Assembly: GCA_018673485.1 (NCBI GenBank)
Contig: JABHCP010000012.1
Coordinates: forward strand, 30,393-94,392
Length of the DNA stretch: 64,000 bases
Source: Candidatus Uhrbacteria bacterium
GTDB lineage: Bacteria; Patescibacteriota; Patescibacteriia; UBA9934
Direction: 5' to 3'
The notes below the pieces were generated by a model, which was not told the origin of the DNA, ran no database searches, and saw only the letters and a program-made list of their open reading frames with translations. This document shows, piece after piece, positions 2,060 through 63,375 of the stretch. The number at the start of each line of letters is the position of its first letter. The stretch's first letter is position 1. The translations under genes were made by a program, and so were the position numbers.

Positions 2060-3682
2060 ATGAATAATATGAATATTAAAAAACAATTCGTAGGTGACGC
2101 AATGTGGATTGCATTGAGTTTAATGGGCATCATGCACGCACTTGCATTTTTTGTGCGTGATACTGGATTCGAGTTGCCGATATTTATTATATTCGGCATT
2201 TTTGTTTTGATAGTTTCCTGGCGATCGCAGTTGAATGGATTACTGATCGCGTTTGCTGAGATCTTTGTAGGTGGTCACGGACATTTGTTAGACATCGAGG
2301 TCCTCGGATTTTCATTATCGATTCGAATGTTAATCTTCGCGATCGTGATGACTGTGTGGTTGATTAAATACGCTCGGATCCCCCTACTTTTCAAGGAGGG
2401 GCCAGGGGTGGTTATTTCTCGTATGATTTTTGTCCGTGATTTACCTTGGCTGGTGCTGATCGTGGCTGTAGCTGTCGGAACACTGATCGGTTTTCTACAA
2501 AATGATCCATCTGCGGCATTCGACGATATGAATGGATATGTGGTGATCGGATATTTATTACCCATACTGACTATCAAGTGGGGTCAAGAAAACAAGAGAA
2601 AGTTACTCCAAGTTTTATTTGCGTCGGTTGTATGGATTATGGGATTCACGGTTGCACTCGCATATGCATTTACTCACATCGACGGTGACAACCTGCACAA
2701 TCTTTACACATTCGTTCGCGATTCAAGATTGGCCGAGGTCACGTTGCAGGTTATTGGATCGGACGTTCCATTTTTGAATCGATTTGAGGGTGATTATTGG
2801 TATCGAATTTTCATGCCAACGCAGACCATTGTCATGTTCGGAATGTTGTTGATGTATGCCTCGGCAATGTATCTCTGGCGAAAAAGCAAAAGCCCGTGGT
2901 TCATGTGGGTTATGTTTGGACTTTCAATTTTGACCATCATATTAAGTTTGTCGCGTAGTTTTATTTTGGGTGCAGTCGCTGGCGGTTTGATTATATTTAT
3001 AACAGCTTGGATGTTTGGAAAGGGGAAGTGGTCGATTGTTGTCAGGACTCTTGGTTCTGTTGTGGTTTCGATCTTCGCGGTCTTGTCGATCATTGCGATT
3101 GTGCAAGTTCCAATACCGCAAAGACCCGACTTGAGTGATGCTGCGTTTTTTGAAACGTCATCAGACACAGGGCGATCCGAGGCGGTAGTAAGTCGCTGGA
3201 ATCTCCTTGATCCGATGATGGATGAGATAATTGAAAGCCCGATTATTGGATCGGGGTTTGGTAAAGAGGTAACGTATACATCAGAAGATCCTAGGATAAT
3301 ATCTGAGCTTGGAAATCAGGGATATACAACTTATAGATTCGAATGGGGATGGCATGATATTTGGCTTAAAATGGGTCTATTAGGGCTTGCGGGCTTCATT
3401 TGGTACATTGTGTCGATTGTGCGTGTTGGGTGGTTTACAATGCAGTCCAAGGGCCACAAATGGCTAGTTATTGGATTGGTCGCCGGGATTGTTGGGCTTT
3501 TCGTAACGCACACGTTCTCACCATATCTAAATCACCCAATCGGACTAAGTCTGATGCTATTTATCATTCCGTTTATTGATTGGGATGGGTTCGCAAAGAA
3601 GCGTAAGGAGGCGTATATAGAGGTTAGAAAAAAGAAACTGATGAAACGACCAGCGACAGTAGTTGCATCAAATATTAAATAA
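2060..3682 (+). CDS. Polytopic integral membrane protein, possibly O-antigen ligase/polymerase-like
   Basis: 540 aa with more than 10 hydrophobic helices, immediately downstream of the glycosyltransferase cluster; assignment is by context only. Confidence 0.4.
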   Translation: MNNMNIKKQFVGDAMWIALSLMGIMHALAFFVRDTGFELPIFIIFGIFVLIVSWRSQLNGLLIAFAEIFVGGHGHLLDIEVLGFSLSIRMLIFAIVMTVWLIKYARIPLLFKEGPGVVISRMIFVRDLPWLVLIVAVAVGTLIGFLQNDPSAAFDDMNGYVVIGYLLPILTIKWGQENKRKLLQVLFASVVWIMGFTVALAYAFTHIDGDNLHNLYTFVRDSRLAEVTLQVIGSDVPFLNRFEGDYWYRIFMPTQTIVMFGMLLMYASAMYLWRKSKSPWFMWVMFGLSILTIILSLSRSFILGAVAGGLIIFITAWMFGKGKWSIVVRTLGSVVVSIFAVLSIIAIVQVPIPQRPDLSDAAFFETSSDTGRSEAVVSRWNLLDPMMDEIIESPIIGSGFGKEVTYTSEDPRIISELGNQGYTTYRFEWGWHDIWLKMGLLGLAGFIWYIVSIVRVGWFTMQSKGHKWLVIGLVAGIVGLFVTHTFSPYLNHPIGLSLMLFIIPFIDWDGFAKKRKEAYIEVRKKKLMKRPATVVASNIK

Positions 3683-7934: not shown

Positions 7935-7942
7935 AGTGGCTT

Positions 7943-8034
7943 AGAAGATCTCTCGTGGGACTCGAGATGGGGGCGGAGGTATGGTCGAGATGGTGATTGA
8001 CATTATCCATTTCGATGCATCAGAGAAATCTTCT
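7943..8034. repeat. Palindromic dispersed repeat family R2 (AGAAGATCTCTC...CGAGATGG...TTCCATTTCGA...GAGAAATCTTCT), copy 1
   Basis: Shares termini and core with the copies at 26388, 26903 and 58079. Confidence 0.6.
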
Positions 8035-9760
8035 AATAATATTTAGAATACTTGCTTAATATTGTAACATTGTCTGGAAGTTCTTTTAATCTTTTCAGGA
8101 TTTCTTTTCTTTGTTTATTGTCTGTTGTTAGTAGAAATGAGCCTTCTTGTTCAATACATTCATCGCGAATGTCACTTGGAACTAAGTCCAATTTCCCTGA
8201 CATGATGAATTGATCAGCGTATGGAGGAAGTTTATATTGTTCTCTTAGTTCATTTTCTTGTTCAAGAAACGATTCCGAATCCAGCATCGGTTTGATAACT
8301 TTCGGCATCCAGGTTTGAATGATGCATTGCGCTTTATGGTGATGTGCCATGTGCATAATTCGATGCAATCGATACGCAGTTGTGATGGAAGATTCGTAAT
8401 TGTCACCTAGTGATTTCTCCGCCATCAGTTCAACTATTAACTCGAATCTATTTTCCGGAAATGGTTTGTAGATACTTTGAAAGTAGTGCTCGGTGACGAT
8501 TGAAACATCGGCGTTCGAATCAGTTGAGTGCTCTTTGTCAATTACTTGAATTTTCGCATTCGTAAATTTCTTTTGCAGATTGTCAGCGATTTTTTTGTTG
8601 CCAATCCCTCGTGTGCTTAGTGTTTTTTTGTTGCATGCCGGGCATGCCTTTGGTATCCACATTTCCGTTGCGCAAACCGGGCATACGAGATCATCCAAAC
8701 GGACATGAGGTTTTGAGCCGCAACTACCGCACATTGGAATGTGGTGACAGGATCGACACTGTAGATGCTTGGCAACACCCTTGCAGTTGTAGGAAATTAG
8801 CACTTTTTTGCCATTTTGTAAAGCATTAGATATGGCATCGAGTGAAGTTTCAGAAATCAGAGGGATGCCAGTTTTTTCCCTTGAGTCAGCTAGGTTGATG
8901 ATTTGAGCCTCGGCTCTCGGAGTTATGTGTATCGGATCATTTGCTTGTTCTAGTCTTGAAAGCGACCCCACGGTAATGATTTGTGCTTTGTGTTGGTCGG
9001 CGAGCAACTCTGCGGCAAGTCGGGCATTGTAACGAGGGTTACGGCTGTAGCTGACATGATCGTCACTTTGCGGGTCGAATACTATGACCGTATCGATTTT
9101 TTTAGCAGGGATGAGTGAACTTTGTTTTGTACCGATTAGAATCTTTAGGTCTCCGCTTTGCCAATTTTCCATTATCCATCTGCGCCTTGCTATTGAAGTA
9201 TGACCGTGTAGCTTTGCGTGAGGTTTAGATAAAAATTGTGAAATAGTTTCAGCGTCATATTCTCGCGGGCATAAAACAAGAACCTGATTCTTGGCTTTTT
9301 TTACAGCCAAGCTCATTGCCACTATTGAACCCTCAAAGCTTGTCTCGATCGAGCCGCGATTGTCGTTAAGGGATGTTCCAATTATCTTTGCAGTTTCTTT
9401 ATCCATCGATCCTGACTTTGAACCTGACCCGTGTTGTGGCGTTGATTTGGAATGCGTGAGGCCTTGCAAGGCACTTGTAAGTACCGTACTAGGGGACTGC
9501 AGTATTTGCTCTGCGATGAGCTCGAGTCGCTTGATGTCACCTGACGTCATGAACTTTGTGTATCGAATGGATTCGATTGTTTGCAATCGCTTAAACTCAG
9601 ATGTATCGGTAATCCCACGAACAATGCCCGCCACCGATCGACCTTTGAGGGGCATATAGACAAGATCGCCGATTTGCACGTTGAGCTCTTCTGAAATTTT
9701 GTAATCAAAAAACGCAAATCTCCTTGGCAATCGCCTTAATGGAATGATTTGCGCGTACAT
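8033..9760 (-). CDS. priA: Primosomal protein N' (PriA-like) with apparently degenerate helicase ATP-binding motifs
   Basis: N-terminal 3'-DNA-binding-like domain (MYAQIIPLRRLPRRFAFFDYKI...GRSVAGIV) and a C-terminal Cys4 zinc module (CRSC...CGSC...CPVC...CPAC); the expected Walker A GxGKT reads FEGSIVAMS and Walker B reads DPQSDDH. Confidence 0.65.
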   Translation of the reverse strand: MYAQIIPLRRLPRRFAFFDYKISEELNVQIGDLVYMPLKGRSVAGIVRGITDTSEFKRLQTIESIRYTKFMTSGDIKRLELIAEQILQSPSTVLTSALQGLTHSKSTPQHGSGSKSGSMDKETAKIIGTSLNDNRGSIETSFEGSIVAMSLAVKKAKNQVLVLCPREYDAETISQFLSKPHAKLHGHTSIARRRWIMENWQSGDLKILIGTKQSSLIPAKKIDTVIVFDPQSDDHVSYSRNPRYNARLAAELLADQHKAQIITVGSLSRLEQANDPIHITPRAEAQIINLADSREKTGIPLISETSLDAISNALQNGKKVLISYNCKGVAKHLQCRSCHHIPMCGSCGSKPHVRLDDLVCPVCATEMWIPKACPACNKKTLSTRGIGNKKIADNLQKKFTNAKIQVIDKEHSTDSNADVSIVTEHYFQSIYKPFPENRFELIVELMAEKSLGDNYESSITTAYRLHRIMHMAHHHKAQCIIQTWMPKVIKPMLDSESFLEQENELREQYKLPPYADQFIMSGKLDLVPSDIRDECIEQEGSFLLTTDNKQRKEILKRLKELPDNVTILSKYSKYY

Positions 9761-17803: not shown

Positions 17804-18766
17804 ATGAAACATGAACTATTTAAAATTTCGATAGATGATTTAAACGACGCGGAGCTTGAGACTGAGCTTGTTTCTTTTTTATATTCAAATTCAACAAAAC
17901 TCATTGCGACACCAAATGCCGAGATGCTTGTTGATGCAATTCAGGATAATGGCAACCCCCCTGAATCCCCCCTTGCCCATTCGACAGGCTCAGGGCACCC
18001 TGAGGAATCGAAGGGTGGGAAGAGGGGAGGCGCATTTCGTGATGCGCTTTCGAATACAGATCTGAACTTGCCCGACACAGTCTCGATTCGGTTTGCGGTA
18101 TCTGCTTTGACTGATAATAGACTTAAGAATCGACACACGGGCGTTGATACACTGCAGAGCTTGATAGAACTTTGTGCAAGGGAAGGGAAGAGTGTTTTAT
18201 TCTTTGGAGGAAATGTCGAGACTCTAAAGCTTGCAAAAAAGAAAGTTGAAGGTAGTCTTCCGCAGACCCTCCTTCGTGAGGAGATGGGGCCAGTGATTAC
18301 ATCTACTCAGTATCAAGGAAGAGATAGAGACGGTTTTAGTATTTCGATTCTGGATCCTGGCGCTGTTGAGCTAGTTGACGATGGGGTTGTCATCGAAAGC
18401 TCGATGATGAATAGAATCAACAAAATCAAGCCAGACGTCATTGCGATCGCTTTGCCTCATAAAAAGCAGTTGGCATTCATGCGTCAATTTAAGGATGAGT
18501 TTCCAAGCGTAAAGATTATGATCGGTGTAGGGGGTGCGCTTGATATGATCAGTGGCAGATTAAAAAGGGCGCCAAAATGGATGCGTAGGACTGGCTTGGA
18601 ATGGCTGTGGCGTGTGTTGATAGAACCAAGCAGGATTGGTAGGATTCTAAAGGCGAGCGTTGCCTTTCCCGCACTGGTCACGATTGAAACAATCAAGCGC
18701 GGCAGGTTCATTAAGGCAGTTAAGAACACAGCTCCTGAGATCATTCGGCAGTTGAGTGGAAAGTAG
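17804..18766 (+). CDS. tagA: WecB/TagA/CpsF-family glycosyltransferase carrying an in-frame repeat-derived insertion
   Basis: C-terminal GGALDMISGRLKRAPKWMRRTGLEWLWRVLIEPSRIGR family signature; residues GNPPESPLAHSTGSGHPEESKGGKRGG are encoded by repeat R1 at 17951-18030. Confidence 0.75.
   Translation: MKHELFKISIDDLNDAELETELVSFLYSNSTKLIATPNAEMLVDAIQDNGNPPESPLAHSTGSGHPEESKGGKRGGAFRDALSNTDLNLPDTVSIRFAVSALTDNRLKNRHTGVDTLQSLIELCAREGKSVLFFGGNVETLKLAKKKVEGSLPQTLLREEMGPVITSTQYQGRDRDGFSISILDPGAVELVDDGVVIESSMMNRINKIKPDVIAIALPHKKQLAFMRQFKDEFPSVKIMIGVGGALDMISGRLKRAPKWMRRTGLEWLWRVLIEPSRIGRILKASVAFPALVTIETIKRGRFIKAVKNTAPEIIRQLSGK
17951..18030 (+). repeat. RPE-like palindromic repeat R1 (GGCAACCCCCC...CTCAGGGCACCCTGAG...GGGAAG.GGGAGG), intragenic in-frame copy
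   Basis: Near-identical copies at 18772-18851, 36417-36495 (reverse) and 38839-38920 (reverse). Confidence 0.8.
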
Positions 18767-18771
18767 TCAAC

Positions 18772-18851
18772 GGCAACCCCCTGTCGTCCCCCTTTGCCCA
18801 TTCGACAGGCTCAGGGCACCCTGAGTTATATCGAGGGGTGGGAAGGGGGAT
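18772..18851 (+). repeat. Repeat R1, intergenic copy
   Basis: ggcaaccccctgtcgtccccctttgcccattcgacaggctcagggcaccctgag...gggaaggggga. Confidence 0.8.
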
Positions 18852-18857
18852 ATGAGA

Positions 18858-18895
18858 GAAAACATTTTAAATAACTTCAACATCTTAAACATCAT
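18858..18895. repeat. Repeat family R4, inverted copy directly upstream of gltX
   Basis: aacattttaaataacttcaacatcttaaacat is the reverse complement of an R4-like sequence. Confidence 0.4.
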
Positions 18896-20359
18896 ATGAC
18901 TCCAGCACGAACGCGTTTGGCACCTAGTCCGACAGGTTTTATTCACATCGGAACATTGCGTACGGCACTCTTTGATTATTTTTTAGCAAAGCAAACTGGC
19001 GGTCAGTTTGTTTTAAGAATCGAGGACACTGATCAGAGTAGGCTTGTGGAAGGTTCTTTGGAAAATTTACTCGAGACATTCAAGTCAGTCGGAATTGAGC
19101 CTGACGAGGGTCCGGTTTTGCAAGACGACGGATCAACTATCGAGAAAGGTGAATACGGTCCTTATGTTCAGTCAAAGCGATTGGATATTTACAAGCCATA
19201 CGTTGAGAAGCTAATTGAGCAAGGCGACGCGTACCAGTGTTTTTGTACAAAGGAACGACTTGATGAAATGAGAGAAAAGCAGCGAGCTACGAAGCAGACT
19301 CCAAAGTATGACCGAAAGTGTTGCGCACTAACTGCGGAAGAAGTGAAGGCAAAGATTGATGCAGGAGAATCATATGTAGTACGAATGAAGGTGCCAGAAG
19401 GTGAAACTATTTTTGAAGATATTGTTCGAAATTCGGTTAAGTTTCAAAATTTAGATGTAGACGATCAGGTAATTCTGAAGTCTGACGGTTTTCCGACTTA
19501 TCATTTGGCCGTCGTTGTTGACGATGCGCTCATGAAAATCTCGCACATCGTGCGTGGTGAGGAGTGGCTTTCATCAACTCCAAAGCATATTATGCTCTAC
19601 AAGATGTTGGGGTTTGAAATGCCGACTTTTGCTCACGTTCCGTTGCTTTTGAATCCAGACAAGACAAAGCTTTCTAAACGTCAGGGTGACGTTGCGGTTG
19701 AGGATTATCTTAAGAAGGGCTACCTCGTAGAAGCGCTGCTCAACTTTATCGGCACACTCGGATTTAATCCAACTGGAGACCGAGAGATTTATTCTTTCGA
19801 TGAGTTGGTGGAGATGTTTGATTTATCAAAGGTAAAAAAGAGTGGCGCGGTAATGAACATCGAAAAGCTCGACTGGATGAATAATCAGTATTTGAAAAAA
19901 ATGGAGGCCAAAGACCTAATTGAGGTTGCAAAGCCATTTGTGAGTATCGATCTTGAAAATGAAACGGTCGGCCGTGCTTTGATAATTGAACGCGATCGAA
20001 TCAATCGACTAGACGAGTTGCAAGAAAAACTCGAGCCTTATGTAGCTGAGTTTGCATACGACTCTGAACTCTTGATCTGGAAAAAGGCAGACGCAGCTGA
20101 CGCTAAGGCACAACTCGAAGGCGTTAAGAAGTTCGTTGAAACGTTAGAAGACGCAGCCTTTGTGAATGTTGAAGCGCTCGAGAGGGAAGTGCGCGCATAC
20201 ATCGAATCCAACGATCTGCAAAACGGAAACGTACTCTGGCCACTACGCGTAGCACTATCAGGTGCCGCAAAATCAGCCTCACCATTTGAGTTATTGTGGG
20301 TGTTTGGAAAAGAGAAGGGGATTGAGAAGATCGATAAAGCGATTGGGTTGCTCGCATAA
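18896..20359 (+). CDS. gltX: Glutamyl-tRNA synthetase
   Basis: RLAPSPTGFIHIGTLRTALFDY class I HIGH region and KLSKRQ (KMSKS-type) motif. Confidence 0.9.
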   Translation: MTPARTRLAPSPTGFIHIGTLRTALFDYFLAKQTGGQFVLRIEDTDQSRLVEGSLENLLETFKSVGIEPDEGPVLQDDGSTIEKGEYGPYVQSKRLDIYKPYVEKLIEQGDAYQCFCTKERLDEMREKQRATKQTPKYDRKCCALTAEEVKAKIDAGESYVVRMKVPEGETIFEDIVRNSVKFQNLDVDDQVILKSDGFPTYHLAVVVDDALMKISHIVRGEEWLSSTPKHIMLYKMLGFEMPTFAHVPLLLNPDKTKLSKRQGDVAVEDYLKKGYLVEALLNFIGTLGFNPTGDREIYSFDELVEMFDLSKVKKSGAVMNIEKLDWMNNQYLKKMEAKDLIEVAKPFVSIDLENETVGRALIIERDRINRLDELQEKLEPYVAEFAYDSELLIWKKADAADAKAQLEGVKKFVETLEDAAFVNVEALEREVRAYIESNDLQNGNVLWPLRVALSGAAKSASPFELLWVFGKEKGIEKIDKAIGLLA

Positions 20360-20759: not shown

Positions 20760-20795
20760 TGGACGCTCGCGCGTAACGCGGCGTCCTTTTTGCTT
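20760..20795 (+). terminator. GC-rich hairpin terminator (ggacgctcgcgcgtaacgcggcgtcc then TTTTT)
   Basis: Stem-loop plus T-run ending the high-GC cassette. Confidence 0.55.
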
Positions 20796-20800
20796 TGATA

Positions 20801-20832
20801 CTACATTCTACTTTCTACATTCTACCTTCTGC
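20801..20832. repeat. Heptad tandem repeat family R3 (CTACNTT)n / (GTAGAAN)n, copy upstream of the M23 peptidase gene
   Basis: ctacattctactttctacattctaccttctgc, followed by GCGATATAAT; inverted partner at 22110-22141. Confidence 0.65.
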
Positions 20833-20873: not shown

Positions 20874-20911
20874 GGCAACCCTCTCCAGCTCCCCCCTGGG
20901 AAGGGGGAGGG
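20874..20911 (+). repeat. Short form of repeat R1 (GGCAACC-N-CTCCCCC-loop-GGGGGAGGG hairpin), which supplies the GGAGG ribosome-binding site of the next gene
   Basis: ggcaaccctctccagctcccccctgggaagggggaggg, then tagaact-ATG. Confidence 0.7.
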
Positions 20912-22109: not shown

Positions 22110-22141
22110 GCAGAAGGTAGAAAGTAGAAGGTAGAATGTAG
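22110..22141. repeat. R3 heptad repeat, inverted partner of 20801-20832
   Basis: gcagaaggtagaaagtagaaggtagaatgtag is the reverse complement of the upstream copy with 2 mismatches. Confidence 0.65.
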
Positions 22142-22149
22142 ATTTTACG

Positions 22150-22957: not shown

Positions 22958-23839
22958 CTACTTTACGTAAACTCGATTACCAAATCTCAAATCGATATAT
23001 TCAAGTTCATGTACTGTCTCACCATACTCGTCGATTATGAGCTGTAAGTTATCAAATTGTTCTTGTGAGTCCCCTACCCCGTTGATATAGATGTCAACAC
23101 CAAGGGTCGATCTAACTGTAAGCCAGACTTCATCCTTGTGATCAATGATATAAGAAATAGGTGTGATAGATGTTTGGCGCAGCATCAGATCGAATTCCTC
23201 GATGGTTGATAGTAGTATCGGAGTTACGATTTGCGTTTCTAGCTCGATAGCATGGTTCTCAAGGTCCCAGATTGTGAAAACAGTAGACTGTAAGCTTTGA
23301 GATGGTGCAACCTGAGTGTTGATTTGTTGCTCAACTTCAGCGTGCTCTAGCTCGGATAACTCACGGATTGCAATTCCATCAGAGTCTAGGAAGAACATTC
23401 TATTGTTCGTGACCCATACAGCGCGCGTGATGCGCTCAGAGGCTTGTATGCTGAGCGTTCTACCACTACGCGATACATCTATCATCTTGAGCTGGAAGTC
23501 ATCTTTGAGAGCCTCTTGGAGCTTTTCGGTACGCACAAACCATATGTGTTTACCGGGCAGTACACCTAGGACTGGATTGCTGACAAACTGCCAAGTTGAT
23601 TGCTCTATAGCATCGGGATAAATAGTAACCAAGCCTTCAATCTCAATCGTTTTGATCTGCAGCCAAGGAATCACCATTAGCCCCCAAGTGATGAGAATTA
23701 AAATAAATATCGCCACCGGAGCAATCAAATACTTTTTCCACGAAGACTTATTTTTTTTATGCGCAAACAGCGGATTCTCATATTGAGATCTTTTGTATCT
23801 GGTAGCCTGATGAGATTTAAGAAAGTTACGCTTTTTCAT
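22958..23839 (-). CDS. ftsQ: Cell-division protein FtsQ/DivIB-like (single transmembrane helix, POTRA-like domain)
   Basis: Basic N-terminal tail, one helix (LIAPVAIFILILITWGLMVI), periplasmic beta-rich domain; topology-based call. Confidence 0.45.
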   Translation of the reverse strand: MKKRNFLKSHQATRYKRSQYENPLFAHKKNKSSWKKYLIAPVAIFILILITWGLMVIPWLQIKTIEIEGLVTIYPDAIEQSTWQFVSNPVLGVLPGKHIWFVRTEKLQEALKDDFQLKMIDVSRSGRTLSIQASERITRAVWVTNNRMFFLDSDGIAIRELSELEHAEVEQQINTQVAPSQSLQSTVFTIWDLENHAIELETQIVTPILLSTIEEFDLMLRQTSITPISYIIDHKDEVWLTVRSTLGVDIYINGVGDSQEQFDNLQLIIDEYGETVHELEYIDLRFGNRVYVK

Positions 23840-23846
23840 AGTTCGG

Positions 23847-23954
23847 TCCCCCTCCTTCCCAAGGAGGGGTTAGGGGTGGTTGCCGTTTGATCTAATTCGA
23901 TCGAATTCAGTTCACCGGCAACCCCCTCCAGCTCCCCCTTGGGAAGTGGGAGGG
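23847..23954. repeat. Inverted pair of short R1 elements (23847-23884 reverse, 23917-23954 forward) flanking a 32-bp spacer that contains the AATTCGATCGAATT palindrome
   Basis: Read on the minus strand, the left copy supplies GGAGGGGG 8 nt upstream of the ftsQ-like ATG. Confidence 0.7.
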
Positions 23955-26387: not shown

Positions 26388-26476
26388 AGAAGATCTCTCC
26401 CCTTCGACAAGCTCAGGATCTGTGACTGGGCGTCGAGATGGTGAAAATTCCATTTCGAACGAAGTGAGAAATCTGC
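26388..26476. repeat. Repeat family R2, copy 2 (upstream of serS)
   Basis: agaagatctctcc...gggcgtcgagatggtgaaaattccatttcgaac...gagaaatctgct. Confidence 0.6.
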
Positions 26477-26884: not shown

Positions 26885-26902
26885 ATTTATCGCTTTTAAG
26901 TT

Positions 26903-26966
26903 AGAAGATCTCTCCTGGGCGTCGAGATGGAATTTATTTCCATTTCGACCCATGGGAGAAATCTTC
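26903..26966. repeat. Repeat family R2, copy 3 (short form)
   Basis: agaagatctctcctgggcgtcgagatggaatttatttccatttcgacccatgggagaaatcttct. Confidence 0.6.
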
Positions 26967-26984
26967 TAACGTCGAAGATTTGAT

Positions 26985-35852: not shown

Positions 35853-38828
35853 TTAAAACGAGCTGTCTTCGCAGATGTCTTTGAAGTCGCAGTATTGGCA
35901 GTGGAATCCGGGGGTTGGGCTGAAGTCACTGGCTTGCATCTTCTCTACTGCTTTAATTACTTCATCGATTAGTTTTTGCTTTTCTTTATCTGTTGGTTCA
36001 AAACTCACTGAAGAGTTGTCTTCCAGATAGTGGTAGGTTGCTTTCGTGATCTTGAGTGGTGGATCGAAACACCGTTCACACGCTAGCGCATAAAGCACGA
36101 GTTGCTTGCGTTCAGGCCAGCTGAGCTTATCCTTTGGTTTTCCAGTTTTATAGTCTACGATCTCATATCCATCATCTAGCTTATCGATCCGATCGATTCT
36201 TCCCTTGGTGGAGATGTCACCAATTTTGAGGGTGAAGTCCTTTTCGATGAATGCGATCTTTGGTTTTGTTTCGGTAAGAATATGGTAGTACTCAGACATC
36301 GTGTCCTTACCCTTTTGATGATACTCAACACGTGTCTCAGCGTCAGGATACCACTCATCAATCCAAGCGCTTTCATAAAGCTCAAGTAATCGACTCTCTG
36401 GCGGAATCTCATCTAATCCTCCCTCCTTCCCACCCTTCGATTCCTCAGGGTGCCCTGAGCTTGTCGAATGGGCAAGGGGGGATAGAGGGGGGTTGCCTTC
36501 CACATACTCACGGGCGAATTGTTCGAGTGCGTTGTGCATTGTCTTACCAAAACTCATTTGATAGCGACCAAACACAGGTACGCGCAAGATGTGGGCATAT
36601 TTGTATTGTAATGGACAGCTTGAGAATGCAGCAATCTGCGTGAAGCTGATGTTGCTCGGTAGCTGATGGTCTACTGTAGCTTTCTCATCGATTGGATCGG
36701 CCTGAGGCTCAAGCGATTTGTTTTGACCAGAATCTTGCGCTTCAATCTCAAGTTCTTTAACAAACCGTGATGGTTTGCGTTTGCGGGTACCACCATAGTC
36801 GTCAGCTGAGAAAAGATAGAGATGTTCTTTGGCTCGAGTCATGGCAACATAGAGCAGTCGTCGTTCTTCCTCGATATGTTCATCACGATCTGCGTCGATT
36901 TGAGTGTTGATGAGTCCCTCTGGAATTCCGATTGGACTACTGCGACGTTGTGTTGGGAATCGTTGCTCAACCATGTTTACTAAAAAGACGAATCGAAATT
37001 CTAATCCCTTTGATGCGTGAATAGTCATTATCTGAACCACGTCAGGGCCAGCGGTTGGATCCCCTGAGAGCGCACCGGATTCGCCACTTGATCGCTCATG
37101 TTCGAATTCTTCTAAAAAGTGATGAAGAGTTTTGTCGTCATTTGAATATTCAAAGCGCTTAACGCGTTCAAAGAACTTTTGCAAAAGTCCGTTCTCTTCA
37201 ATTTGTTGTGGTTCTGGCAGTTGCTGTGCCGTGGCGATGATCCCAGTTTGTTTTACGATCTCTACAAATAATTCACTACTTGGTTTTCGTTTTGATAGAG
37301 CCCGCAGTTCTGTCAGCGCTTCGATTATCTCGGTGATTCTTTCGCGACTTGCATCAGATATATCATCGGTTTGCTCTAAAACTTCAAAAAGCGAGAGGCC
37401 CTTCTTTTTACTGTGCATTGAAAGCTTGGCAATGTCGATTTCTGAAATTCCAAGCTCTGGATGGCTTAGAATTCTGTAAATCGAAGGACTGTCATACGGG
37501 AGGTCAATTACGCGCATCCAAGCCAAGCAATCAAGTATTACCGGCTTTGTGTATAGCCCTGAGAGGGCCAGGAAGCGGTATGGCATGCGAATCTGGTCCA
37601 TGATCTCTACAAATGGCTCAGCATGCGAATTTGCGCGAACTAGAATGGCAAAGTCACTCCAATTGCACTCGTGTTCTTTTTGCAGATCAACAATTCTTGA
37701 GATTACTCCATGAAGCTCACTTTGCAGATCATCGGCATGGATATGGTCGACTTTCCCCTCTATTCCAAGGTTTGGCAACAGCTCCTTATTGATTTGCTCG
37801 CGATGTTCAAGTCTGTGTGGATTATTGTTCTGGATTACGTTATACGCGTGGTGCAATACTTTTTCTGAGCTTCTGTAGTTTTGATTGAGAACAATCTGCT
37901 TTGCGTCTGAAAAGTCTTTTGAGAAATTCAAGATATTGGAAAGTGATGCTCCGCGGAATTTGTAAATTGATTGATCGTCGTCCCCCACTACCGTGATATT
38001 GAAAGGTTCTTTAAGCAAGAGTTTGATGAGTTCGTATTGTGCAGAGTTAGTATCCTGAAATTCATCAACAAGCACGAACTTAAATTGTTCCTGATACTGC
38101 CTAGCAATCCGAGGACGCGATCGAAGAAGCTCAATCGTATAACTAACAAGATCTGCAAAATCAAGCGCACTATTTTCAAGCAAGATTTGTTGGTAGGTGT
38201 GATACGCATTAGCGAGCTCATTGATACGCGCATTTTCCTGCTCTTGTTCTTCCGGACTAATCTCATCTCCCTCCTTCCCAAGGGGGGATTCAGGGGGGTT
38301 GCCGTCATTCAAATCAAGATCCTCAGCAAATTTCAAATACTGCTCTGGCGTGATCATCTCATCTTTAATTCGTGAGAAGTGCTGCAAGAGCGCGCGGATA
38401 AACTTAGTTGGATTTGATTTTGGTTTGTAGTAATCAAGTTCAAAACGATCAAAGTTTTTCCTGATCAATAAGTAGGTATCAATCTCATCGAGAAGCGTAA
38501 ATTCATGCGGCACGCCAATATCAAGCGCATGCTGGCGCAAAATCCGCTCACAAAATGCATGAAAGGTTGAGATCCACATGTCCACGTAGCCGATTGGGAG
38601 TAATTGATCGACTCGCTCTTCCATCTCCGTTGCCGCTTTCTCTGTAAAAGTGAGTGCCAAAATCTCCTCAGGCTTCGCCTTCCCCTGCTCAATCAACCAG
38701 GCAATCCGCTGCGTTATAGCAGTAGTCTTCCCAGTCCCCGCCCCCGCAATAATCATAAGCGGCCCCCGATCATGCGTAACAGCCTCCAACTGCGCCTCAT
38801 TTAGATTTTCGAGTAGGTTTTGATTCAT
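35853..38828 (-). CDS. UvrD/PcrA-family helicase fused to a C-terminal PD-(D/E)XK Cas4/AddB-like nuclease with a 4-Cys cluster; carries two in-frame repeat-derived insertions
   Basis: Walker A IIAGAGTGKTTAI; C-terminal CPLQYKY...DRIDKLDDGYEIVDYKTGK...CQYCDFKDIC; encoded peptides GNPPLSPLAHSTSSGHPEESKGGKEGG and GNPPESPLGKEGDE come from repeat R1. Confidence 0.8.
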   Translation of the reverse strand: MNQNLLENLNEAQLEAVTHDRGPLMIIAGAGTGKTTAITQRIAWLIEQGKAKPEEILALTFTEKAATEMEERVDQLLPIGYVDMWISTFHAFCERILRQHALDIGVPHEFTLLDEIDTYLLIRKNFDRFELDYYKPKSNPTKFIRALLQHFSRIKDEMITPEQYLKFAEDLDLNDGNPPESPLGKEGDEISPEEQEQENARINELANAYHTYQQILLENSALDFADLVSYTIELLRSRPRIARQYQEQFKFVLVDEFQDTNSAQYELIKLLLKEPFNITVVGDDDQSIYKFRGASLSNILNFSKDFSDAKQIVLNQNYRSSEKVLHHAYNVIQNNNPHRLEHREQINKELLPNLGIEGKVDHIHADDLQSELHGVISRIVDLQKEHECNWSDFAILVRANSHAEPFVEIMDQIRMPYRFLALSGLYTKPVILDCLAWMRVIDLPYDSPSIYRILSHPELGISEIDIAKLSMHSKKKGLSLFEVLEQTDDISDASRERITEIIEALTELRALSKRKPSSELFVEIVKQTGIIATAQQLPEPQQIEENGLLQKFFERVKRFEYSNDDKTLHHFLEEFEHERSSGESGALSGDPTAGPDVVQIMTIHASKGLEFRFVFLVNMVEQRFPTQRRSSPIGIPEGLINTQIDADRDEHIEEERRLLYVAMTRAKEHLYLFSADDYGGTRKRKPSRFVKELEIEAQDSGQNKSLEPQADPIDEKATVDHQLPSNISFTQIAAFSSCPLQYKYAHILRVPVFGRYQMSFGKTMHNALEQFAREYVEGNPPLSPLAHSTSSGHPEESKGGKEGGLDEIPPESRLLELYESAWIDEWYPDAETRVEYHQKGKDTMSEYYHILTETKPKIAFIEKDFTLKIGDISTKGRIDRIDKLDDGYEIVDYKTGKPKDKLSWPERKQLVLYALACERCFDPPLKITKATYHYLEDNSSVSFEPTDKEKQKLIDEVIKAVEKMQASDFSPTPGFHCQYCDFKDICEDSSF
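36417..36495 (-). repeat. Repeat R1, in-frame intragenic copy (reverse orientation on the window plus strand)
   Basis: Its reverse complement is nearly identical to 17951-18030. Confidence 0.8.
38268..38304 (-). repeat. Short form of R1 (termini only), in-frame intragenic copy
   Basis: Reverse complement is ggcaacccccctgaatccccccttgggaaggaggg. Confidence 0.7.
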
Positions 38829-38838
38829 ATGCTTATAT

Positions 38839-38920
38839 CCTCCCCCTTCCCACCCATCGATATAACTCAGGGTGCCCTGAGCGGAGTCGAATGGGCAAGG
38901 GGGAGTTAGAGGGGGTTGCC
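38839..38920 (-). repeat. Repeat R1, intergenic copy that supplies the GGAGG ribosome-binding site of the helicase gene
   Basis: Minus strand reads ...gggaagggggaggatataagcat-ATG. Confidence 0.8.
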
Positions 38921-51783: not shown

Positions 51784-51857
51784 TGGCGCCGATGGCAGGA
51801 ATTGAACCTGCGACCCCCTGCTCGACGGCAGGTGCTCTATCACTGAGCTACATCGGC
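51784..51857 (-). tRNA. tRNA-Asp(GUC)-like gene with an apparent 6-nt anticodon loop
   Basis: Acceptor GCCGATG/CATCGGC, D arm GCTC/GAGC, T arm GCAGG-TTCAATT-CCTGC, discriminator G, CCA encoded; anticodon stem CCTGC/GCAGG encloses CGTCGA. Confidence 0.55.
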
Positions 51858-51871
51858 TAAGGAGTGAGAAA

Positions 51872-51984
51872 TGGCTCTGGGGGCTGGATTTGAACCAACG
51901 ACTTCCTGCGTGATGGTAGGTGAACTAACCAGTTGTTCTACCGGCTTGGCAAACAGGCGAGCTAACCAACTGCTCTACCCCAGA
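51872..51984 (-). tRNA. 113-nt tRNA-like gene: canonical acceptor, D and T arms, with about 36 extra nt in the anticodon region (candidate tRNA-Gly(GCC) carrying an insertion or intron, or a disrupted tRNA)
   Basis: 5' TCTGGGG-TA-GAGC-AGTTGGTTA-GCTC-G-CCTGT-TTGCCA[36 nt]C-GCAGG-AAGTC-GTTGG-TTCAAAT-CCAGC-CCCCAGA-G-CCA; removing 51911-51946 gives a 77-nt cloverleaf with loop UUGCCAC. Confidence 0.45.
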
Positions 51985-53927: not shown

Positions 53928-53965
53928 TAGGTAGTAGTAAGTAGAAAGTAGAGAGTAGAATGTAG
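53928..53965. repeat. R3 heptad repeat directly upstream of the cvpA-like start codon
   Basis: taggtagtagtaagtagaaagtagagagtagaatgtag. Confidence 0.6.
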
Positions 53966-53969
53966 TGGT

Positions 53970-54017
53970 GAGTTCGATCGAATCCCCCTCCTTTTTAAGG
54001 AGGGGTTAGGGGTGGTT
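53970..54017. repeat. Short R1-like hairpin element (ccccctcctttttaaggaggggttaggggtggtt) with TTCGATCGAA flank
   Basis: Variant of 23847-23884. Confidence 0.55.
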
Positions 54018-58078: not shown

Positions 58079-58150
58079 AGAAGATCTCTCGTCGCCTACT
58101 CCTCGAGATGGGAATTAATTTTCCATTTCGAACAGAGTGAGAAATCTTCT
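58079..58150. repeat. Repeat family R2, copy 4
   Basis: agaagatctctcgtcgcctactcctcgagatgggaattaattttccatttcgaacagagtgagaaatcttct. Confidence 0.6.
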
Positions 58151-60723: not shown

Positions 60724-60755
60724 AATTATATCGCAGAAGGTAGAATGTAGAAAGT
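60724..60755. repeat. R3 heptad repeat upstream of the glutaredoxin-like gene
   Basis: gcagaaggtagaatgtagaaagtagaatgtag; the minus strand reads CTACATTCTACTTTCTACATTCTACCTTCTGCGATATAAT..ATG, identical in register to the 20801 copy. Confidence 0.65.
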
Positions 60756-60798
60756 AGAATGTAGCTCGATTTCGTTCAAAACTGCCTACCGCCCCCCC

Positions 60799-62544: not shown

Positions 62545-62576
62545 ACCCTTTCGATTCGTTCGAGAGGGTGTTTTTT
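62545..62576 (+). terminator. Terminator accctttcgattcgttcgagagggtg then TTTTTT (copy 1 of 2)
   Basis: Near-identical to 63344-63375. Confidence 0.6.
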
Positions 62577-63322: not shown

Positions 63323-63343
63323 ATTTCACGTAAAATAAAAGTA

Positions 63344-63375
63344 CCCTTTCGATTCGTTCGAGAGGGTGTTTTTTT
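63344..63375 (+). terminator. Terminator accctttcgattcgttcgagagggtg then TTTTTTT (copy 2 of 2)
   Basis: Duplicate of the 62545 terminator. Confidence 0.6.

Follow-up and report, generated by a model that had tools for sequence, protein, structure and literature searches.

Why should two unrelated proteins, a TagA/WecG-family glycosyltransferase and a UvrD-type helicase, carry the same peptide? The question is raised by a stretch of 64,000 nucleotides (the window) on contig JABHCP010000012.1 of a Candidatus Uhrbacteria bacterium, which we take to be a groundwater bacterium with a tiny, streamlined genome of the Candidate Phyla Radiation (CPR). An initial annotation had ascribed the shared peptide to a recently active palindromic repeat of about 80 bp, similar in behavior to the Rickettsia palindromic elements (RPE), that was inserted in frame into both genes and tolerated as surface loops. 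We conclude, with a probability of roughly 80%, that the segments belong to a repeat family whose members are very small, non-coding hairpins, dispersed in this Uhrbacteria genome and tolerated in frame in protein loops.

The four long copies (~80-82 bp) and the copy consisting of the termini only (37 bp) were recovered by direct reading and alignment where they had first been placed (Table 1), and the termini of all aligned copies read GGCAAC... and ...GGGAGG. Their number is far above chance: the 18-nt center, GGCTCAGGGCACCCTGAG, has four matches with at most one mismatch, against 0.04 expected and with none of 100 shuffles reaching four, and the left-terminus pattern has four matches against 0.00 expected. 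Two of the long copies lie in coding orientation and in the same frame within intact open reading frames (ORFs), with translations in agreement, GNPPESPLAHSTGSGHPEESKGGKRGG in TagA (in the context ...DNGNPPESPLAHSTGSGHPEESKGGKRGGAF...) and GNPPLSPLAHSTSSGHPEESKGGKEGG in the helicase (...VEGNPPLSPLAHSTSSGHPEESKGGKEGGLD...), and the short copy in the helicase yields GNPPESPLGKEGDE at residues 176-189 (...NDGNPPESPLGKEGDEIS...). The repeat-bearing DNA is 100% identical on separately assembled JGI metagenome contigs (L005, L008, and L011), and an identical helicase is encoded on two ENA contigs (L019 and L020). Because these assemblies are independent, misassembly is excluded. The helicase is also 100% identical to an NCBI entry, "ATP-dependent helicase [Candidatus Uhrbacteria bacterium]" (P0121).

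TagA, with 320 amino acids, is longer than most of the homologs listed (263-297 amino acids), which are overwhelmingly from Uhrbacteria or Patescibacteria. At the long copy (site 1), the insert is absent in 18 of the 20 aligned homologs, and the 27-residue segment is found only in P0001, a partial copy of the same protein. The insert-free homologs pass from ...KDD straight to DFR..., including that of a relative, R2 (JGI Ga0335114_11294617, loci L016 and L022; TagA P0002), and in a second relative, R1 (GCA_964452565.1, with loci L014 and L021 on CAYVLY010000001 and L001 on CAYVLY010000003), TagA (P0004) carries a short form, GNPPVSPLGKGGG, at exactly the same point. Both relatives are syntenic with the window, the R1 gene order ClpB-DUF2238-TagA-GltX-sigma factor being that of the window, and the identity to the window proteins, taken over aligned columns, is about 65% for TagA and PriA and 84-85% for the helicase. 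In the solved TagA structure (PDB 7MPK), residues 5-49 and 51-126 of the chain align with query residues 4-48 and 77-153, and the 28 query residues in between (49-76) match a single residue. At a second site in TagA (site 2), residues 150-177 (GSLPQTLLREEMGPVITSTQYQGRDRDG) align with an intact pair of forward and reverse short forms in R2 (P0002/L016; GNPLQLPLGKEEEFNQGPPTFQGGDRGG), which reads GNPLQLPLGKEEE...PPTFQGGDRGG. This insert is common to the window and P0002 only, missing from the remaining aligned homologs, and it is the same insertion as in R2 in a decayed state.

The helicase repeats this pattern. At site A, which holds the 37-bp copy, the short form is common to P0122, P0123, P0124, and P0126, whereas P0125, P0127, and more distant homologs lack it. 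At site B, in the nuclease domain, the long form of the window corresponds to a short form in P0122 and P0123 (R2 reads HNPLQLPLKKGGG and R1 reads GNPPQSSLGKGGG) and to nothing in P0125 and homologs beyond it. Family-invariant residues are kept in both TagA and the helicase, and both genes therefore look functional. In the AlphaFold2 model of TagA (21-sequence alignment; mean predicted local distance difference test, pLDDT, 84.6; predicted template modeling score, pTM, 0.83), the sole segments with pLDDT <50 are residues 51-73 and 154-174, i.e., the two inserts, the first flanked by a confident helix (39-48) and helix 77-83 and the second by a confident helix (138-149) and strand 179-183. The helicase model is weaker (pLDDT 71, pTM 0.45) and places the inserts in coils with pLDDT <50, one (176-189) between helices 161-173 and 192-218 and the other (780-805) between helices 757-777 and 811-821. 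The proposal of surface loops thus agrees with the models as far as low-confidence loops between confident elements are concerned, and the inserts would probably be surface-exposed and neutral, their exposure and tolerance being read from predicted structures and retained residues. As a separate observation, the helicase family hosts inteins in other lineages, since two homologs of ~1340-1370 amino acids (P0224 and P0240) have intein/Hint Pfam domains (PF14890 and PF01079).

Alternatively, the segments might not be insertions but old functional parts of TagA and the helicase, either linkers or domains, and related segments do occur at the same positions in close relatives. However, the same DNA is found in unrelated genes and between genes, it is absent from most orthologs and from the solved TagA, the segments are predicted to be disordered, and the copy at TagA site 2 is decaying, all of which makes an ancient domain very improbable. 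The initial annotation had expected the inserts to be lineage-specific, and this was borne out: they are absent from most TagA and helicase orthologs and from 7MPK, and the two alignments contain no distant ortholog with the same segment.

The relatives also add host genes and variable sites. Three in-frame inserts are found in PriA of R2 (L016): one short form lies in reverse, another runs forward in a different frame (ATPSTSPLGSGR), and the third is a long form with triple nesting. None of them is present in the window or in R1 (L014). Further hosts are found in L001 (a membrane protein of 702 aa) and in L007/L009 (an ORF of 550 aa, with the element in the opposite orientation). The tagA-gltX spacer of R2 (L016) holds a short form whose downstream flank is clearly homologous; the helicase leader is empty in R1 (L021), with ATG coming almost directly after TTGTCA...TGGTAAAAT, and holds only a left-arm remnant in R2 (L022). 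In L014, a short form precedes the M23 peptidase gene, and the site orthologous to the 23848 copy carries the same (beta) subtype. Presence and absence vary at orthologous sites for TagA site 1, the helicase 5' leader, and the three PriA sites, and judging from these comparisons the genic inserts are lineage-restricted and variable in presence among relatives. Two minor observations concern R1. Its helicase ortholog (L021) starts ~13 nt after the -10-like TGGTAAAAT and may be leaderless. Its metagenome-assembled genome (MAG) is titled "uncultured Gammaproteobacteria bacterium," a label that looks wrong because R1 is syntenic with the Uhrbacteria window and has proteins 65-85% identical to those encoded there; a cross-phylum spread of the whole element was accordingly rejected as a candidate, the full copy in this "Gammaproteobacteria" MAG (L001) belonging to a mislabeled syntenic relative.

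If the inserts are translated, the expected peptides include AHSTGSGHPEESK and ...GNPPESPLAHSTGSGHPEESK. The TagA copy is stop-free in four of six frames, and the genic copies of the window and the relatives use at least four combinations of frame and orientation (GNPP..., ATP..., reverse ...PLL.KG..GV, and reverse PP..GG.RGG). The GNPP frame is found at four of the six forward short-form sites, and a preference of forward short forms for it is possible, on numbers too small to test. That TagA and the helicase contain the same peptide is true, as initially reported, but the GNPP frame is one of four stop-free frames and the shared frame is no rule, because relatives use other frames and orientations (L007; PriA of L016); the identity is a coincidence of modest improbability. 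Database searches with the peptides were uninformative: a 60-aa concatenate of both insert peptides returned no candidate although the database contains P0121, which is therefore no sign of absence, and an exhaustive peptide-profile search of 1.8 billion proteins gave no match at E<=0.001, a threshold that a 30-position profile cannot reach in a database of that size. One might also suppose that the mature protein lacks the peptide, the genic copy having been removed earlier in the manner of introns or inteins. The elements are strongly structured, and nothing direct speaks for removal; group I/II introns and inteins are far larger than these 39-81 bp, Rfam has no family that matches, and the lengths are multiples of three with stop-free frames in genes only, as translation predicts. 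We consider removal far-fetched.

The element described initially as a palindrome of ~80 bp is palindromic, but it is a composite of an outer hairpin and a separate nested core. The basic unit is a C-run/G-run hairpin of 37-39 bp, GGCAACCCCC-N6-7-CCCCCTTG joined to GGAAGGGGGAGG, with an alpha subtype (GGCAACCCCC-N6-7-CCCCCTTGGGAAGGGGGAGG) and a beta subtype (GGCAACCACCCCTAACCCCTCCTTGGGAAGGAGGGGG), in both of which the second C-run is complementary to the G-run (e.g., CUCCCCCUU/AAGGGGGAG). The core is another hairpin, of 42-45 bp, CCCATTCGAC-N-CTCAGGG-CA-CCCTGAG-N-TCGAAGGGTG, and the long form of ~81 bp is a short unit with the core exactly at its apex, between ...CCCCCTTG and GGAAG.... As a whole, each long copy folds into a single long, imperfect hairpin (energies of -40 to -43 kcal/mol, with z from -1.9 to -3.5). 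The genic cores (42 bp) and arms (39 bp) are multiples of three, and the two intergenic cores, of 44 and 45 bp, have another spacer in common, TTATATCGA. In L012, L016, and L022, the variable spacer of the left arm itself contains a further small hairpin, unrelated to the other two. The 37-bp copy, previously called a truncated form, is not a fragment but the abundant basic unit, which recurs solo at five further sites in the window. With these and the decayed double copy in TagA, which had also been missed, the copies first reported are real but under-counted: the window has at least ten recognizable copies (four long and six short), about one per 6 kb. Six of the ten are intergenic, though non-coding DNA makes up only about one tenth of the window, as estimated from the ORF lists.

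Table 1. Copies of the hairpin repeat in the window and the two genes that host the in-frame long copies (positions count from the first letter of the window).
Feature	Position	Strand	Context and details
TagA/WecG-family glycosyltransferase (host gene 1)	17804-18766	+	320 aa; Pfam PF03808 Glyco_tran_WecG, E 1.6e-37
UvrD-type helicase with C-terminal PD-(D/E)XK nuclease domain (host gene 2)	35853-38828	-	991 aa; Pfam UvrD-helicase, UvrD_C, and PDDEXK_1
Long form	17951-18031	+	In frame in TagA, aa 50-76; left arm 17951-17975, 42-bp core 17976-18017, right arm 18018-18031
Long form, 44-bp core	18772-18852	+	Intergenic, between the tagA stop and gltX
Long form, 42-bp core	36417-36497	-	In frame in the helicase nuclease domain, aa 778-804
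Long form, 45-bp core	38838-38920	-	Between the promoter-like TTGTCA...TGGTAAAAT (conserved) and the helicase ATG; presumably in the helicase 5' leader
Short form	38267-38303	-	In frame in the helicase, about aa 176-188
Short form, beta subtype, reverse orientation	2380-2414	-	In frame in a Wzy_C-like membrane-protein ORF, 2060-3682(+); peptide PLLFKEGPGVV; candidate insertion, from the window sequence alone
Short form	20874-20910	+	G-rich arm stops 8 nt ahead of the M23 peptidase ATG (20919)
Short form, beta subtype	23848-23884	-	8 nt ahead of the ATG at 23839; half of an inverted doublet
Short form, alpha subtype	23917-23953	+	Second half of the inverted doublet; 32-bp spacer with AATTCGATCGAATT
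Short form, beta subtype, diverged 5' end	53984-54017	-	Intergenic, downstream of metG
Decayed double short form (forward and reverse)	18251-18334	+	TagA aa 150-177

The composite structure raises the question of which part came first. At every one of the window's four long-form sites, a core-less form or a remnant is present in R1, R2, or both, and neither relative has a core at any of them; the long forms of R1 and R2 lie elsewhere (L001; L016 428-540 and 19934-20048). Therefore, the outer hairpin is probably the older part and the core lineage-specific. P0004 has the outer hairpin at TagA site 1, and P0122 and P0123 have it at both helicase sites; because relatives with 65-85% identical proteins share these positions, the outer insertions in the two genes are older than the split from these relatives, whichever way the core was gained or lost. 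The claim of recent activity may thus apply to the core at best, and does not hold for the outer hairpin.

As for the core, it occupies non-overlapping sites in three genomes, whereas short forms are often in common. Arm and core variants are also uncoupled, since L013 and L006 have identical arms with cores 91% alike, and the copy at 38838 and L013 have cores 98% alike with arms 87% alike. The core further occurs without arms, each time bounded by TG...GGTG, in a Curtissbacteria genome, in another Patescibacteria genome, and in a MAG of 53% GC labeled Deltaproteobacteria, and none of the five beta-subtype short forms seen carries a core. Because of these observations together, we favor a scenario in which the core was added secondarily to pre-existing short forms. 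The reverse is conceivable, with the long form as the original and short forms deriving from it by precise loss of the core through replication slippage between the flanking TG..TG. TG flanks the core on both sides in every copy, a microhomology that would favor deletion of a hairpin, and the long forms of L016 lie at sites that are wholly empty in the window, so that long forms may move as a unit. However, deletion requires independent, precise losses in the relatives at all four window sites, and the non-overlapping cores amid shared short forms, the stand-alone cores of other genomes, the uncoupled variants, and the core-free beta forms all argue against it; on balance we regard deletion as unlikely, although worth keeping in view. 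Going one step beyond secondary insertion, we tentatively suggest, at somewhat short of even odds, that the core is an independently mobile mini-hairpin found beyond one lineage, with no element-encoded enzyme nearby, that homes here to the apical loop of another hairpin repeat, so that loops of essential genes are lengthened stepwise, first by 13 codons, then by 14, and by a third tier in the relatives.

Taken together, we hypothesize that copies of the repeat spread to many sites in a transposition-like manner by means of an enzyme that would be supplied in trans and is not encoded in the window. The hairpin shape of the repeats, their occurrence as inverted doublets, and the targeting of the core to the apex suggest an enzyme recognizing single-stranded DNA or hairpins, and one of the IS200/IS605-RAYT type (RAYT, REP-associated tyrosine transposase; IS, insertion sequence; REP, repetitive extragenic palindrome) or the IS110 type might be the most plausible guess. 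Selection would act as a filter, the survivors in genes being in frame (with a length that is a multiple of three), stop-free, and located in loops. Insertion of the core at the apex of existing short forms may then give rise to the long form, and translation of a genic repeat would yield a Gly/Pro/Ser-rich, probably disordered peptide that is tolerated and perhaps neutral.

Several points weigh against this account. No transposase or other mobilizing gene was found among the window ORFs, and neither a target-site duplication nor a clean, discrete terminal inverted repeat can be defined, the flanks at filled and empty sites being too diverged or too microhomologous for a duplication to be delimited and the arms being pairing C-runs and G-runs. 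All metagenome contigs of the window strain are identical, and because no insertion polymorphism is seen within the population, current activity is unproven. The stems are invariant across eight long copies, which makes a test of structural covariation impossible and leaves a selected structure without support from this side. Deletion of the core fits the pattern of short and long forms almost as well as its insertion, and translation of the inserts into peptide is an assumption. A search of viral contigs for exact matches to the core or the short form gave none, and thus no sign of a phage vector.

How does this family compare with known repeats? RPE are units of ~100-150 bp that form ten families in hosts of the Alphaproteobacteria. 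They are small palindromic repeats found between genes and in frame within many unrelated housekeeping genes, where they encode a family-specific peptide and leave the ORF unbroken, apparently at structurally permissive sites and with an unusually high frequency of in-frame gene colonization (PMC10969869). The Uhrbacteria repeats are likewise both intergenic and in frame in several unrelated ORFs, comprising TagA, the helicase (two sites), and the Wzy_C-like gene in the window, and PriA, a membrane protein, and another ORF in the relatives. However, their host is a member of Candidatus Uhrbacteria within the CPR rather than of Rickettsia or the Rickettsiales, the units of 37-39 and 80-82 bp are far shorter, and the element is composite and nested and is read in several frames and orientations. 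Therefore, the RPE-like behavior proposed initially, that of an in-frame, ORF-preserving palindromic repeat, stands as an analogy, whereas host and length, as described for RPE, set the family apart from them.

The short form also resembles REP sequences and their doublets (REPINs), which are reported to be G+C-rich, imperfect palindromes of 20-40 bp that are present in high copy number, form inverted doublets, and are mobilized by RAYT (PMC3116915, PMC3337134), the RAYT gene as a rule lying between such repeats; it is 37-39 nt long and G+C-rich, with inverted doublets at 23848-23953 and at L016 10902-11012. REP sequences are further reported to have a GTAG or CGTC tetranucleotide tag at one end (PMC3733652). 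By contrast, the Uhrbacteria copies are without such a terminal tag, CGTC being present only in the variable spacer of one copy, they are not restricted to extragenic DNA, and there is no RAYT gene among the window ORFs. Bacterial MITEs (miniature transposable elements with inverted repeats) that make in-frame fusions, such as intragenic ERIC, pneumococcal BOX, Coxiella QMITE1, and Anabaena MITEs, are similar in being small non-autonomous repeats with stop-free frames that can be fused with host ORFs, and presence/absence polymorphism at orthologous sites is found here as well; those MITEs have recognizable terminal inverted repeats, target duplications, or a parent IS, none of which can be defined for the Uhrbacteria element. 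The core brings to mind the IS110-family element ISPpu9, which reportedly inserts into REP sequences, in that one repeat serves as the landing site for another, the core always lying between CCCCCTTG and GGAAG at the apex; here, the inserted unit would be a non-coding hairpin of 42-45 bp and not an IS, insertion rather than deletion being the inferred direction. None of the literature searched links Patescibacteria with MITE or REP terms, and none contains the core sequence.

Instead, the main function of the repeats might be that of RNA or DNA signals, for example as stabilizers of mRNA or as hairpins in 5' leaders masking a Shine-Dalgarno (SD)-like GGAGG, with the genic copies being accidental. 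In line with this, three of the six intergenic copies stop 7-10 nt upstream of a start codon in sense orientation (20919, 23839, and 38828), these three provide the strongest SD-like motifs in the window, such motifs being present at only 9 of its 46 genes, and two of the positions are conserved in L014. The remaining copies, however, lie after stop codons, in antisense, or within genes, no copy coincides with a terminator-like site in the window, no covariation was found, and Rfam yielded only tRNAs at gathering thresholds, with no match even at E<=1 across 17900-18900. We therefore consider a primary signaling function improbable, while some of the intergenic copies may be regulatory. Two specific roles were considered separately and dropped or downgraded. 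The element as supplier of a needed ribosome-binding site was downgraded on the count of SD-like motifs just given, the need for such a motif being unclear because most window genes manage without one, and a role as intrinsic terminator was rejected for want of any coincidence with a terminator-like site.

Rickettsia is the best-known case of palindromic repeats settling in frame in housekeeping genes. With dispersed hairpin repeats as the preferred explanation, RPE-like behavior in the CPR suggests that invasion by small hairpin repeats generally ends in this way in compact genomes dense in genes, in which permissive protein loops are among the few landing places left. The orthologous short, long, and empty sites provide a rare stepwise record of disordered loops being gained by conserved enzymes, with the same repeat intact in one genome, decaying in another, and absent in a third. 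In practical terms, such repeats inflate "hypothetical" peptides, confuse calls of gene starts, and can mislead analyses of domain boundaries and alignments in CPR genomes.

Other repeats and structured features were observed in the window. A second palindromic family, with the pattern TTAGAAGATCTCTC ... TCGAGATGG ... TTTCCATTTCGA ... GAGAAATCTTCTA, is located mostly at gene ends (7941-8035, 26388-26458, 26901-26968, and 58079-58150; also 22286, 42832, and 59003), and its copy at 26405 adjoins a CCCTTCGACAAGCTCAGG unit similar to the core of the main element. Other G+C-rich hairpin clusters (...TTCGAC..GCTCAGG... / ...CCTGAGC..GTCGAAGG...) are found at L002 5560-5740, L003 5230-5410, and 22738-22790 of the window; clusters of this type occur in several CPR genomes and in one Deltaproteobacteria-labeled genome, and no description of them was found in the literature searched.

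Two adjacent tRNA genes are unusual. The sequence at 51875-51984(-) is an Rfam tRNA match of 110 nt (50.9 bits; no call by ARAGORN) with ~38 nt inserted just after the anticodon loop (UGC, Ala). The insert (CCGGTAGAACAACTGGTTAGTTCACCTACC) resembles the D-arm region of the same tRNA, so that part of the gene may be duplicated internally; a short intron is the other possibility. Its neighbor at 51784-51857(-) scores 62 bits in Rfam and is called "tRNA-???" with a two-base anticodon by ARAGORN, its loop seeming irregular (CGUCGAG).

Near-identical terminator-like hairpins, ACCCTTTCGATTCGTTCGAGAGGGTGTTTTTT, are present at 62545-62575 and 63343-63373, downstream of convergent or adjacent genes. Finally, degenerate heptamer arrays (GTAGAAT / GTAGAAA / GTAGAAG) occupy intergenic positions on either strand (20787-20832, 22110-22142, 53929-53965, and 60733-60764; also 28512 and 55478), several of them adjoining short-form hairpins, and similar arrays lie near the L022 elements.

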